DNA of 64,000 bases from Escherichia phage Gostya9, in the sequence record NC_047979.1; one strand, written 5' to 3'. Of the stretch, positions 25,326 through 32,556 are shown piece by piece. The position numbers were made by a program, and so were the translations under genes. The notes below the pieces were generated by a model that saw only the letters and a program-made list of their open reading frames with translations, was not told the DNA's origin and made no database searches. Numbering within the stretch: the first letter of the stretch is position 1; every line of letters starts with the position of its first letter.

Positions 25326-25510
25326 TAGCTCTCCTGTTTGGTAGTTAGTAGGGGGTTTTGAACCACTGTAGTCGCTCCGTATGAAGGAGGTGCATAACCA
25401 CTCTGCCAACTAACTAGTATGTTTTACTAGACTAAGTAAGTATTCTTTATACTCTTTAGACCAGCTAGCTTTTTAAACTTTCCTGGACGCATAGTCTTAA
25501 TTCCTAGATT

Positions 25511-25967: not shown

Positions 25968-26043
25968 TGGTGCGGGATACGAGAGTCGAACTCGTGTCTA
26001 CTGGTTGGAAGCCGGTTATTCTAGCCGCTGAACTAATCACGCA
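25968..26043 (-). tRNA. tRNA, tentative Gly (UCC)
   Basis: CCA + acceptor + T-arm GTTCGACTC; anticodon loop CTTCCAA; hand-folded. Confidence 0.5.
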
Positions 26044-26053
26044 TTAATTTGGC

Positions 26054-26131
26054 TGGCAGGGGATATTGGATTTGAACCAATGATCTCGACTTCAAATGCC
26101 GTAGCTTTAGGCCAAGCTAAGCTAATCCCCA
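26054..26131 (-). tRNA. tRNA, tentative Gln (UUG)
   Basis: T-arm ATTGG-TTCAAAT-CCAAT; anticodon loop ATTTGAA; unpaired 1-72 as in tRNA-Gln. Confidence 0.5.
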
Positions 26132-26137
26132 ATTGTT

Positions 26138-26231
26138 TGGCAGAAGGTAGTGGATTTGAACCACTGATCAGGATTTCAGAGACCTCGGCCTTAACCGACT
26201 TGGCTCAGGTTCTTCAAGGCGCTTACCTTCA
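26138..26231 (-). tRNA. tRNA-like element with canonical 3' half; 5' boundary and anticodon unresolved
   Basis: CCA, acceptor 3' strand and T-arm GGTTCAAATCC are clear; D-arm GCC-AAGTCGGTTAA-GGC present but acceptor closure is ambiguous; overlaps 3' end of ORF 26168..26377. Confidence 0.3.
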
Positions 26232-26377
26232 TGATCTACTCGAATGACTCCGCATCCTTCGCAAACCACAACTGCACCATAACCTTCTTTGACTTCGGCT
26301 TCTGTAATCAGACCAGATAAGTCACCAGTATCTCTGCCCCACATATCAATGGAGCATTGTTTGCAGAAATCAGCCAT
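26168..26377 (-). CDS. small zinc-ribbon protein (uncertain)
   Basis: 69 aa with CKQC..CEGCG; C-terminal tail overlaps a tRNA-like element. Confidence 0.35.
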   Translation of the reverse strand: MADFCKQCSIDMWGRDTGDLSGLITEAEVKEGYGAVVVCEGCGVIRVDHEGKRLEEPEPSRLRPRSLKS

Positions 26378-26379
26378 AA

Positions 26380-26607
26380 TTAATCCTTATTACAAGTGGT
26401 AGAGAGGATGGTACGATCGGAGATCCAACCGCCAGTGTAAGCACCATTGACTTTATATTCAGTCAAAGTACCGTGACCACGAATAGCGAAAACTGTTAGG
26501 GTTTTCGTGCCCCCATAACCATCTTTAACAGTTACGGTACAATCTAATGATGTGCCGATAGTGCAGCCAGCTAAAGTCAGAGCAGCAATCAATACTAAGT
26601 ATTTCAT
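26380..26607 (-). CDS. small lipoprotein
   Basis: 75 aa; signal peptide with lipobox LAGC. Confidence 0.5.
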   Translation of the reverse strand: MKYLVLIAALTLAGCTIGTSLDCTVTVKDGYGGTKTLTVFAIRGHGTLTEYKVNGAYTGGWISDRTILSTTCNKD

Positions 26608-26788: not shown

Positions 26789-27011
26789 AATTGAAAACTC
26801 GCAGGGTTAGCGAAACCATCCTCAATTAGCATGTCTAGAATACTAATCAAGTTATCTCCTATTGCATGCAGCTCAAGACGAGTACGAATTTTCAATTGTG
26901 GCGGCTCTCCGAAACTCTTCTATTCTAGTCCCAGAAGCTTACTCCCGAACGCATGTCGGGGAAGTCTTTCCAAGCGCACCAAATAGCACCGTTACACTTT
27001 GAGCCATTATT

Positions 27012-27106
27012 TGGAGGTAGGTAAGGGGATCGAACCCTTACACCGTATCACTACGATCAACCGATTTCAAGTCGGAGTCCAGCGCCAGCCGTTGGATTGA
27101 CCTACC
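27012..27106 (-). tRNA. tRNA-Ser (UGA), type II
   Basis: 95 nt; perfect acceptor GGTAGGT; anticodon loop CTTGAAA; long variable arm. Confidence 0.5.
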
Positions 27107-27118
27107 ATATAAATTGTT

Positions 27119-27209
27119 TGGCGGAAGAGGAGAGATTTGAACTCTCAAGCCGTTTTACCAGTCAGCCACTTTCCAAGCGGTTTTCGTCGCCAATTCGATT
27201 TGCTCTTCC
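27119..27209 (-). tRNA. tRNA-Ser (GGA), type II
   Basis: 91 nt; perfect acceptor GGAAGAG; anticodon loop TTGGAAA; long variable arm. Confidence 0.5.
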
Positions 27210-27321
27210 AATCATAAGATGATGCCTCTATCACGCCAGGCAGTTACGCCTCGCTGGGATTCGAACCCATTAAAACAGCTCAACCGAGATAGTAGGTTTA
27301 ATTTACTCTGACCATCAAATT

Positions 27322-27843: not shown

Positions 27844-27907
27844 TGGTCAGTGCGGCAGGACTCGAACCTGCGACCCGAATCATCCAGGGATCCCACGCTA
27901 CGCACTG
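27844..27907 (-). tRNA. truncated tRNA-like element (64 nt)
   Basis: perfect 7-bp acceptor CAGTGCG/CGCACTG, CCA and canonical T-arm GCAGG-TTCGAGT-CCTGC, but only 29 nt between them. Confidence 0.3.
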
Positions 27908-28288: not shown

Positions 28289-28362
28289 TGGCGCGACCGA
28301 TGGGATTTGAACCCACATTCCCCGTGACAGGGGAGTACCATTACCAAGCCAGCCCCTGTCGC
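28289..28362 (-). tRNA. tRNA-Asp (GUC)
   Basis: anticodon loop CTGTCAC flanked by CTCCC/GGGGA stem; T-arm GGGTTCAAATCCC; CCA encoded. Confidence 0.55.
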
Positions 28363-28371
28363 ATAATTCAT

Positions 28372-28557
28372 TTACTCATATTTGAGTTTTTCAATAGCTG
28401 CATTAAGTTCTTTTAGAGCTTCACGACGTTCTACCTGACCTTGAAGTTCTTCAAGAAGTTCCGCTTTCAGAGTCTCAATAATTTTACCACGAACCTTGAT
28501 ATTATTAATCAGATTATCACGATCAGCTTCTAGTCGAGCAATTGCATGAGTTGTCAT
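28372..28557 (-). CDS. small coiled-coil protein
   Basis: 61-aa ORF. Confidence 0.4.
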   Translation of the reverse strand: MTTHAIARLEADRDNLINNIKVRGKIIETLKAELLEELQGQVERREALKELNAAIEKLKYE

Positions 28558-28584
28558 ATCTATTTCCTCAGTTATTAATGAAAA

Positions 28585-28658
28585 TGGTATCTGTGGCTGA
28601 ATTTGATGTCAGCAATGATAGCTGGTTGGCTACCGGTTTACTTAACTCTACACAGAAT
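28585..28658 (-). tRNA. tRNA, anticodon unresolved
   Basis: CCA + acceptor + T-arm GCTGA..TCAGC; candidate anticodon loop TATCATT. Confidence 0.4.
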
Positions 28659-28659
28659 T

Positions 28660-28740
28660 TGGCGGGCCGTGTAGGATTCGAACCACCAACCCCGAAGGGC
28701 ACGGATTTACAGACCGCTGCAATAGCCATTCTGCCAACGA
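28660..28740 (-). tRNA. tRNA-Tyr (GUA)-like, type II; acceptor closure not confirmed
   Basis: anticodon loop CTGTAAA, variable arm CCC-TTCG-GGG, T-loop TTCGAAT and CCA; no complementary 5' acceptor strand found. Confidence 0.4.
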
Positions 28741-31899: not shown

Positions 31900-32408
31900 A
31901 TTCCTGTGTCGATATTTTTAAGAACTCTCGTAAAAACTCTTAAAAATACAGACGATACCGGGAGAGTCATAAGTCTCACTCATTAAGTATTTCAAGACAA
32001 AATACAGTAACGTCTATTATTTTCCAGTTTAAGTCAAGGTGACTTAGTGGTTATGCCCTGCGGTATACTGGGGACTCGGTTAGGTTAGGGTCATGACTTC
32101 CTACCTTTTTGCTGCTACTCAACAGGAGTTATCGCGAATTACCTGTGCTATTGTGCACCATTAGTGGCATCTCTCATGCCAGCATTTCCCACTTTGTGGA
32201 TAGTTTGAAAAACTACTCCGATATGGAGGGAGAACTTCACTATCCTAGAATACCTTCTAAAGTTCTTCTTTAGCCTGGACATAGTTAAATCGTAATAAAA
32301 CTATTCAGCAGACTGGTTGGTTAGCCTGGAACCAACTACCGCGTGGTTTAGGCAGTGCGCAACTAACCTCGGAAGCTTTTACGTTAAAAGCACCAGTTAT
32401 CCAGTTCT

Positions 32409-32480
32409 TACCGATCGTAGGATTCGAACCTACATCTTCCACCAGTTACGGCTTGATAATACCGTTTATACTAGATCGGC
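32409..32480 (-). tRNA. tRNA, anticodon unresolved
   Basis: acceptor GCCGATC/GATCGGT, T-arm GTAGG-TTCGAAT-CCTAC; CCA not encoded. Confidence 0.45.
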
Positions 32481-32556
32481 AGTGTTACTACATAAGTGAT
32501 TTCCACACCCCACTATTTATAACTTAGAGAAGAATTACTCTCTAATTTATGAATAT

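Follow-up and report, generated by a model that had tools for sequence, protein, structure and literature searches.

Immediately upstream of a tRNA-Gln(UUG) gene, the phage DNA analysed here (the window, a stretch of 64,000 nucleotides) carries a sequence that looks like a tRNA and is at the same time read as the end of a small open reading frame (ORF). Is this a tRNA gene, a coding sequence, or one at the expense of the other? The first-pass annotation had seen a tRNA-like element and had asked whether the ORF tail is read through into a tRNA or the element itself is atypical; as described below, both apply. The best explanation, to which we assign a probability of about 0.82, is loss of hegD (F-TflII), a free-standing HNH homing endonuclease gene: this loss damaged a tRNA-Gln(CUG) gene of the T5 'tRNAQ2' lineage, and the element is what remains of it.

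Identification of a tRNA-Gln(CUG)-derived element

The element and the tRNA gene next to it have the following parts:

26138..26213, minus strand: 76-nt element (encoded CCA counted) derived from tRNA-Gln(CUG) of the T5 'tRNAQ2' lineage, Rfam RF00005
26213..26207, minus strand: acceptor 5' strand AGAACCU, closing with two adjacent C·C mismatches
26204..26188, minus strand: D-arm GCC-AAGUCGGUUAA-GGC
26179..26177, minus strand: anticodon CUG (Gln)
26165..26149, minus strand: T-arm AGUGG-UUCAAAU-CCACU, which fits GTTCRANYC
26148..26142, minus strand: acceptor 3' strand ACCUUCU
26141, minus strand: discriminator G (G73)
26140..26138, minus strand: CCA
26054..26131, minus strand: neighbouring tRNA-Gln(UUG), 'tRNAQ1', found by ARAGORN and by Rfam (46.2 bits), 6 nt downstream of the element

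Read 5' to 3' (26213 to 26138), the element is AGAACCU GA GCC AAGUCGGUUAA GGC C GAGGU CUCUGAA AUCCU GAUC AGUGG UUCAAAU CCACU ACCUUCU G CCA. The T-arm (perfect), D-stem, anticodon loop, G73 and encoded CCA are intact, and the canonical 3' half and Gln-type D-arm had been correctly recognized in the first pass. All features described then are present; what has to be corrected is the strand, which is minus. The acceptor stem has 5/7 pairs, with adjacent mismatches C5·C68 and C6·C67 (linear numbering), and the anticodon stem 4/5 (A29·C43) around the intact loop CUCUGAA, compared with 5/5 in the copy of phage DT57C. The same two adjacent acceptor non-pairs and the one anticodon-stem non-pair appear in the Rfam alignment. 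Furthermore, nt 8 of the element is G (G8, 26206); it is U in all intact orthologues and in each of the 11 other tRNAs confidently called in the window.

RF00005 matches 26141..26213 at 33.5 bits (gathering score 29), with an E-value of 0.0035 over the whole 64-kb window and of 3.3e-5 in a 601-nt scan. The 12 tRNAs that ARAGORN reports for the window all lie on the minus strand, at 25.3 to 32.5 kb, and do not include the element at 26138..26213. The element is nevertheless more than a chance match, because its Rfam score and E-value are accompanied by an identity of 71/76 to the tRNA-Gln(CUG) genes of the related phages IrisVonRoten and APCEc03, copies that score 56.9 bits. It also sits where the T5 'tRNAQ2' lineage does, after the T5.062 ORF and directly before tRNA-Gln(UUG).

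The overlapping ORF and its tail

Three features describe the coding side of the locus:

26168..26377, minus strand: T5.062-family small Cys4 ORF, PHROG 2210 (function unknown), 69 aa plus stop
26168..26200, minus strand: adventitious ORF tail S60-S69 (SRLRPRSLKS) plus UGA, from the D-arm and anticodon arm of the element
26170..26168, minus strand: ORF stop UGA, which is tRNA nt 44-46

The 69-aa ORF indeed runs into the element, as the first reading had it. Its last 10 codons and stop are tRNA sequence; conversely, the first 9 nt of the tRNA are ORF codons, which makes the element atypical. The fused C-terminal peptide is ...EEPEPSRLRPRSLKS. The match to PHROG 2210 (E = 1.2e-37) covers aa 1-61 only. 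Of 46 homologues found, 24 were aligned; in these 24, C5, C8, C39 and C42 (two CxxC) are invariant and the conserved core extends from aa 1 to about 55, ending near VDHEGK. The peptide SRLRPRSLKS was seen in no homologue (46 found, 24 aligned); the tails all differ, and the nearest relatives end in ...PEPIATVPVE. An AlphaFold2 model is confident for aa 1-55 (pLDDT 88-94 for aa 1-50) and falls below 50 for aa 58-69, so that the SRLRPRSLKS tail is predicted to be disordered. The alignment of homologues, proposed earlier as a check, gave no conserved ORF C-terminus, and a tail that is unconserved, outside the PHROG 2210 match and predicted to be disordered fits read-through into a tRNA. A zinc ribbon is plausible for the ORF; a Foldseek search of the model against the PDB returned no match at E <= 0.001 and a Pfam search of the ORF returned none. 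On the minus strand, a scan between ORF and element found no promoter-like or terminator-like site, and the two may perhaps be co-transcribed.

Relatives of the locus and the loss of hegD

Over 751 nt the window shares 99.5% identity with the T5-like Tequintavirus DT57C. Over 20 kb the identity is only 96.9% across 81%, and the phage is therefore a relative of DT57C and not DT57C itself. We compared the stretch from the T5.062-like ORF to tRNA-Gln(UUG) in 17 related phage loci and found five arrangements:

Class A (S124, UTK0009, PMBT26, chee24): ORF with its own stop (after ...EEPEPIATVPVE or ...PVTLFP), a short spacer and a canonical tRNA-Gln(CUG) of unrelated sequence
Class B (T5, IrisVonRoten, VAH1, SP3, fp01, KookSpook, one metagenome contig): ORF with its own stop, hegD (582 nt) and the T5-type tRNA-Gln(CUG)
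Class C (Es2, FFH1, WP85, Elw): hegD gone save its last 13 codons, ORF fused in frame (stop after ...RLEDPKSIKKKVSQVG), tRNA intact
Class D (APCEc03): ORF joined between ...CTTGAAGAA and GGTTAGCC, tRNA intact, ORF stop a UAG at tRNA nt 8-10
Class E (window, DT57C, DT571/2): ORF joined between ...GAAGAACCTGAGCCAA and GTCGG

In T5, IrisVonRoten and about ten other phages, the T5.062-like ORF and the tRNA are separated by hegD, a 582-nt HNH ORF with Pfam matches to HNH_3 and NUMOD4. Its last 7 codons and UAA stop in class B are tRNA nt 2-23, and the class B tRNAs have a perfect cloverleaf in all phages but T5 itself. A tblastn search with hegD against the whole window gave no homologue (best E 0.22). 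The T5-type tRNA is present in 30 phage records (about 20 phages) of about 650 T5-like ones and is always accompanied by hegD or by a deletion junction at its place. In most T5-like phages the ORF ends at a stop of its own and a spacer separates it from the tRNA; the fused ORF-tRNA form is restricted to 3-4 close relatives among the approximately 650 records. The ORF reads the tRNA in a frame other than that of hegD; this is why the D-loop UAA that ends hegD does not stop the ORF, which continues to nt 44-46.

The junction can be placed precisely by comparison with IrisVonRoten. There, the ORF holds AGAACCTGAGCCAA (codons EEPEP) and tRNA nt 1-14 are AGAAGGTTAGCCAA; these imperfect 14-nt direct repeats match at 11/14 positions, and their starts are 597 bp apart, with the ORF copy upstream. 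The window has the IrisVonRoten sequence minus exactly 597 bp, with the left (ORF) repeat kept. The flanks agree at 176/178 positions on the ORF side and at 166/170 in the tRNA body and downstream. At the junction, the window has:

26200..26213, minus strand: hybrid 14-nt repeat AGAACCTGAGCCAA, i.e., ORF codons (E)EPEP in place of tRNA nt 1-14 (AGAAGGTTAGCCAA)
26205..26200, minus strand: AGCCAA, where the crossover falls when the window is aligned with both IrisVonRoten repeats, left and right

The junction of the window recurs in DT57C and DT571/2, and APCEc03 has the same deletion but retains the right (tRNA) repeat. In class C, hegD was deleted independently at the same locus via other short homologies, which makes two or more independent deletion junctions at the locus. 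ORF homologues beside the unrelated class A tRNA have conserved EEPEP codons as well, and the repeat is therefore chance microhomology and not a relic. An origin of the 14-nt repeat other than chance was rejected also on numbers: with about 800 x 100 pairs of end points, an 11/14 match is expected by chance according to our own binomial estimate.

From these alignments the direction is clear: the fused form is derived and arose by a short-repeat deletion of the endonuclease gene. The ancestral order was a T5.062-like ORF with its own stop, followed by hegD and tRNA-Gln(CUG). A 597-bp deletion between AGAACCTGAGCCAA near the 3' end of the ORF and AGAAGGTTAGCCAA then took the last 7 codons and stop of the ORF (tail IATVPVE), hegD in full and the original 5' end of the tRNA. 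Since the ORF copy of the repeat was retained, the tRNA received the two acceptor C·C mismatches and G8. Two further substitutions in the tRNA, one of them breaking an anticodon-stem pair, followed later. At the level of sequence, the comparison shows that hegD went with a deletion between the short direct repeats, that the tRNA has a chimeric 5' end, that the ORF tail is read-through sequence and that tRNA-likeness fell step by step.

The block linked to hegD holds both Gln tRNA genes, in alleles that are unrelated to those of phages free of this homing endonuclease gene (HEG). Homology between classes A and B ends after GAGCCA(A) in S124 and chee24, or at the ORF stop in UTK0009 and PMBT26, and resumes only at the 3' end of tRNA-Gln(UUG). 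Judged by its sequence, the block would fit co-conversion around a cleavage site in or near the Gln tRNA genes, and is indirect evidence that the remaining alleles might resist cleavage by F-TflII. The F-TflII site was reportedly mapped by Akulenko in 2004.

Metagenomic data added little to this series. In an IMG/VR scan, the D-arm pattern matched at least 120 unrelated phage tRNAs and the right type only in T5 and DT571/2; the 3' acceptor pattern gave known isolates and two chance matches only. A metagenome scan for the D/E junction found none, and one for the tRNA body yielded one more hegD-bearing contig.

Decay of the tRNA

The element differs from the consensus of the intact copies at five positions:

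26209, minus strand: G5C, C·C mismatch with C68
26208, minus strand: G6C, C·C mismatch with C67
26206, minus strand: U8G, conserved U8 gone
26187, minus strand: U27C, common to the window and DT57C
26185, minus strand: G29A, in the window but in neither of the aligned copies of DT57C and DT571/2, gives A·C in the anticodon stem

Compared with the intact consensus, the 3' acceptor strand has no change that would compensate the C·C mismatches. The window-specific change at 26185 could be a sequencing error. Scores and folding energies of the copies are as follows:

Intact copies: Rfam 53.2-58.0 bits, cloverleaf -18.5 to -22.9 kcal/mol
DT571/2: Rfam 44.3 bits, cloverleaf -11.4 kcal/mol
DT57C: Rfam 39.8 bits, cloverleaf -8.8 kcal/mol
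T5 pseudogene: Rfam 39.1 bits, cloverleaf -7.8 kcal/mol
Window: Rfam 33.5 bits, cloverleaf -2.2 kcal/mol, non-cloverleaf minimum free energy (MFE) fold -16.7 kcal/mol

The cloverleaf of the window copy is thus 14.5 kcal/mol worse than its MFE fold. ARAGORN calls the copies of DT57C, DT571/2 and T5 as well as the intact ones, unlike that of the window. In an alignment of 14 tRNA sequences, whose divergence is too low for true covariation, all unpaired stem cells belong to the three class E copies or to T5, and the intact copies vary between G-U and G-C only. Relative to DT571/2, the element has 3/76 substitutions and the neighbouring tRNAs 0/78 and 1/75, which are very small numbers.

Taken together, the element appears to be drifting, with its function as a tRNA gone or badly impaired; the likeliest reading is a non-functional tRNA pseudogene, left behind when the endonuclease gene was lost. 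The tRNA would then be inactive, with Gln codons decoded by host tRNAs and the neighbouring tRNA-Gln(UUG) instead. CAG makes up 48% of the Gln codons in long ORFs of the window, a value that is uninformative on the need for a tRNA with a CUG anticodon. If RNase P does not cut, the 10-residue ORF tail would be junk carried by the protein; a cut at nt 1, if it still occurs, would give an ORF mRNA without a stop codon.

Two other tRNAs of the window are also altered. The tRNA-Pro homologue has lost its D-arm by a 12-nt deletion between GTAGCG repeats, and tRNA-Met has a damaged T-arm. This points either to a phage lineage that is shedding tRNAs or to local assembly errors.

Other explanations

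Acceptor mismatches alone do not prove inactivity, since a T5-like tRNA-Gly with one conserved acceptor mismatch is reported to be an effective suppressor (T5 annotation). Could the element still be a working tRNA-Gln(CUG), with processing enzymes and GlnRS tolerating the C·C mismatches, G8 and A·C and the ORF overlap being harmless? Its score exceeds the 29-bit cut-off, the T-arm, D-stem, anticodon loop, G73 and CCA are all in place, and the copies of DT57C and DT571/2 are called by ARAGORN and annotated in their records as tRNA-Gln without a pseudogene flag. However, the cloverleaf of the window copy is far less stable than its MFE fold and ARAGORN rejects it, the U8 kept by the other 11 confidently called tRNAs of the window is lost, and instead of a compensatory change in the 3' acceptor strand the damage accumulates from DT571/2 to DT57C to the window. 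In addition, the homologue in T5 is already recorded as a pseudogene, which argues that the gene is dispensable. We consider a working tRNA unlikely. Decidedly improbable, in our estimate, is that the overlap is a regulatory device in which the tRNA-like fold is kept as an RNase P or processing site that severs the ORF mRNA before its stop. Such a role has been proposed for T4 segB and the T5 F-Tfl endonucleases (PMC2330249), hegD and hegC of T5 overlap the 5' ends of tRNAs, and the minus strand lacks a promoter- or terminator-like site between ORF and element; but the overlap is a by-product of the deletion and is found only in DT57C, DT571/2 and the window, close relatives have five different ORF tails and stop positions, and in most T5-like phages the ORF keeps its own stop and a spacer. 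A further reading is that the mismatched RNA is alive in one of two ways: RNase P cuts it, leaving a non-stop ORF mRNA and a tmRNA-tagged product, or it is charged as an unusually tolerant tRNA. We regard this, too, as quite unlikely; if RNase P did still cut, the fused ORF would have acquired an accidental post-transcriptional switch.

The first-pass annotation had stated that the acceptor closes only with mismatches or with an 18-nt insertion. Both closures are there, the first with the two C·C mismatches and the second with the following sequence:

26224..26230, minus strand: GAAGGTA (ORF codons E-G-K), complementary to UACCUUC at 26149..26143 and 17 nt upstream of G8

They are not of equal standing: the mismatch closure is homologous and the insertion closure is coincidental, because the E-G-K codons are conserved in ORF homologues even beside unrelated tRNAs. 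If 17-18 nt were inserted behind the acceptor 5' strand and GAAGGUA (26230..26224) paired with UACCUUC, the tRNA would have a perfect 7-bp stem, and the MFE fold of the 95-nt RNA (26232..26138) does use this helix at -24.9 kcal/mol. However, the helix takes U65 from the T-stem and shifts the register of discriminator and CCA by one, the D and anticodon arms are unformed in that fold, which is not a cloverleaf, and in the intact relatives the acceptor 5' strand directly precedes U8. The insertion model was rejected on account of the conserved codons and the shifted CCA register, and we give it hardly any credence; the GAAGGTA helix may, however, compete with the cloverleaf in the transcript. 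The polarity of the change could also be the reverse, with the fused ORF-tRNA being ancestral and a later insertion of hegD creating the ORF stop and a repaired tRNA 5' end. HEGs are known to invade intergenic sites beside tRNA genes (PMC2330249), but the tail IATVPVE is common to HEG-bearing phages and to HEG-free phages with an unrelated tRNA-Gln(CUG), the fused form is confined to 3-4 close relatives, and ORF codons would have had to be turned by the insertion into a perfect acceptor stem and U8. Moreover, the Es2-type alleles directly show a deletion of hegD. On parsimony and on these Es2-type remnants we rejected an insertion into an ancestral fused gene, which is very improbable.

Relation to known systems

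The closest counterparts of the element, a remnant left by the loss of hegD in our preferred reading, are DT57C (NC_027356) and DT571/2, which share the locus, the junction, the two C·C mismatches and G8, and in which tRNA-Gln(CUG) overlaps the CDS gp132, a T5.062 homologue. Over 123 nt, the junction region is 99.2% identical. Compared to DT57C, the window has the additional stem-breaking G29A (26185), scores 33.5 instead of 39.8 bits and has lost the ARAGORN call. Searching the literature on DT57C together with tRNA or homing endonuclease, we found no account of this deletion junction. The intact hegD-linked tRNA-Gln(CUG) genes of IrisVonRoten, VAH1, SP3, fp01, Es2, FFH1 and APCEc03 are 71/76 identical to the element and have the same D-arm, anticodon loop, T-arm and 3' acceptor strand as the window but, unlike it, a perfect cloverleaf, U8 and 53-58 bits.

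T5 itself offers an orthologue, tRNAQ2(CUG) (GenBank AY543070), at the same position upstream of tRNA-Gln(UUG). It is degenerate like that of the window and overlapped by the upstream ORF; the T5 record flags it as a pseudogene, the first 23 nt of which are overlapped by hegD. The damage is of a different kind, though. T5 has kept hegD and a perfect acceptor stem, and its alterations (G31A plus one insertion and one deletion) fall in the anticodon and T stems, whereas the window has lost hegD and its tRNA is damaged at the 5' end.

Homing endonuclease genes go through a cycle of invasion, fixation, degeneration and loss. The window matches the loss stage, in which the HEG-linked block with both Gln tRNAs is kept after deletion of the HEG. 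The presence of HEGs in phage tRNA clusters has been documented, as have overlaps between them and tRNA genes (PMC2330249; PMC10644984), and for T4 segB and the T5 F-Tfl endonucleases it was proposed that tRNA processing limits expression of the ORF (PMC2330249). In these overlaps, as in the window, an ORF enters the 5' part of a tRNA within a cluster that is, or in the window may be, co-transcribed (PMC2330249; T5), and tRNA maturation should sever the message close to or ahead of its stop codon. The window differs in that the overlapping ORF does not encode an endonuclease and is the gene upstream of the deleted one, and in that the overlap is secondary, in another frame and damaging to the tRNA.

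Implications

Existing records already cover the locus: those of DT57C and DT571/2 list a tRNA-Gln(CUG), that of T5 a pseudogene. What the locus carries in the window is an ordinary evolutionary scar and no new type of element, recognized by routine comparative genomics in a known framework, and its significance beyond annotation is little. For annotation, the analysis suggests that the DT57C-type copies should be labelled likely pseudogenes, and that the C-terminal 10 residues of the T5.062-like protein in the window and in DT57C-type phages are tRNA read as codons. For the T5-like phages, the alleles form a series that leads from an intact tRNA with hegD over three hegD-deletion junctions to progressive decay. 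This series illustrates how a free-standing HEG is lost by short-repeat deletion, with collateral damage, in phage tRNA clusters, and it provides natural variants for the question of how much acceptor-stem damage a phage tRNA tolerates.

Other atypical tRNAs and tRNA-like features in the window

25339..25415 (−), tRNA-Met(CAU) with altered T-arm, compared with T5
27847..27907 (−), tRNA-Pro homologue without D-arm, compared with the tRNA-Pro of DT57C

Relative to the tRNA-Pro of the close relative DT57C, the window copy has lost 12 nt between the direct repeats GTAGCG...GTAGCG; its Rfam score is 33.4 bits versus 45.6 bits in DT57C and ARAGORN made no call for it in the window. This lesion appears to be a second short-repeat deletion that damaged a tRNA in this phage. 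The T-arm of tRNA-Met(CAU) reads GTTCAAAACCCCCT in the window versus GTTCAAATCCACT in T5, and the score is 25.7 bits versus 46.3 bits in DT57C. This could reflect genuine decay or a homopolymer error in the assembly.

25968..26042 (−), tRNA-Gly(UCC) with a conserved U4·C69 acceptor mismatch
26054..26131 (−), tRNA-Gln(UUG), Rfam 46.2 bits

The U4·C69 mismatch of tRNA-Gly(UCC) is shared by relatives; according to the T5 record, a changed anticodon turns this tRNA into an effective amber suppressor. In tRNA-Gln(UUG), a U1·U72 mismatch is present in all T5-type copies. The window and DT57C have in addition an A·A mismatch topping the anticodon stem as well as A32, and the window score compares with 54.5 bits in T5 and IrisVonRoten.

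about 26790..27320 and 28292..28739 (−), counterparts of DT57C RNA features
32408..32481 (−), 'tRNA-Ser(ACT)', ARAGORN call, Rfam 39 bits

For the first two regions, the DT57C annotation gives the stable RNAs RNAIII, RNAI and RNA3 (function unknown), two tRNA-Ser and a 'tRNA-Asp'; in the window only sub-threshold matches to tRNA or tRNA-Sec were obtained (38.3, 27.9 and 25.1 bits). The 'tRNA-Ser(ACT)' call is dubious: it has C8, an encoded CCA is absent and the corresponding region of DT57C is annotated as protein-coding.

The hegD locus and its Gln tRNAs

26380..26607 (−), lipoprotein-like ORF of 75 aa, PHROG 1119 match
26054..26213 (−), Gln tRNA gene pair (CUG and UUG), alleles compared with loci L012, L017 and L003 of related phages

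The lipoprotein-like ORF adjoins the small Cys4 protein gene (T5.062-like ORF) directly upstream; its PHROG 1119 match, at E = 1.3e-18, is to the Cor superinfection exclusion protein. Both DT57C and S124 carry this ORF, but T5 and IrisVonRoten lack it at this site.

An alternative deletion junction of the homing endonuclease gene hegD was seen in Es2, WP85, FFH1 and Elw (loci L005, L009, L010 and L011). Here, hegD was lost at other end points, with the microhomology AAGAnCC; its 13 final codons remain as an in-frame extension of the T5.062-like ORF, whose stop is now the UAA of the tRNA D-loop. This junction represents a second, independent hegD deletion.

The Gln tRNAs (CUG, UUG) of hegD phages and their deletion derivatives are unrelated in sequence to the syntenic pair in S124 and chee24, which are free of the endonuclease gene, and homology does not return before the 3' end of tRNA-Gln(UUG). 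Such an allele pattern suggests a spread of hegD together with two Gln tRNAs of its own, which are possibly cleavage-resistant replacements.
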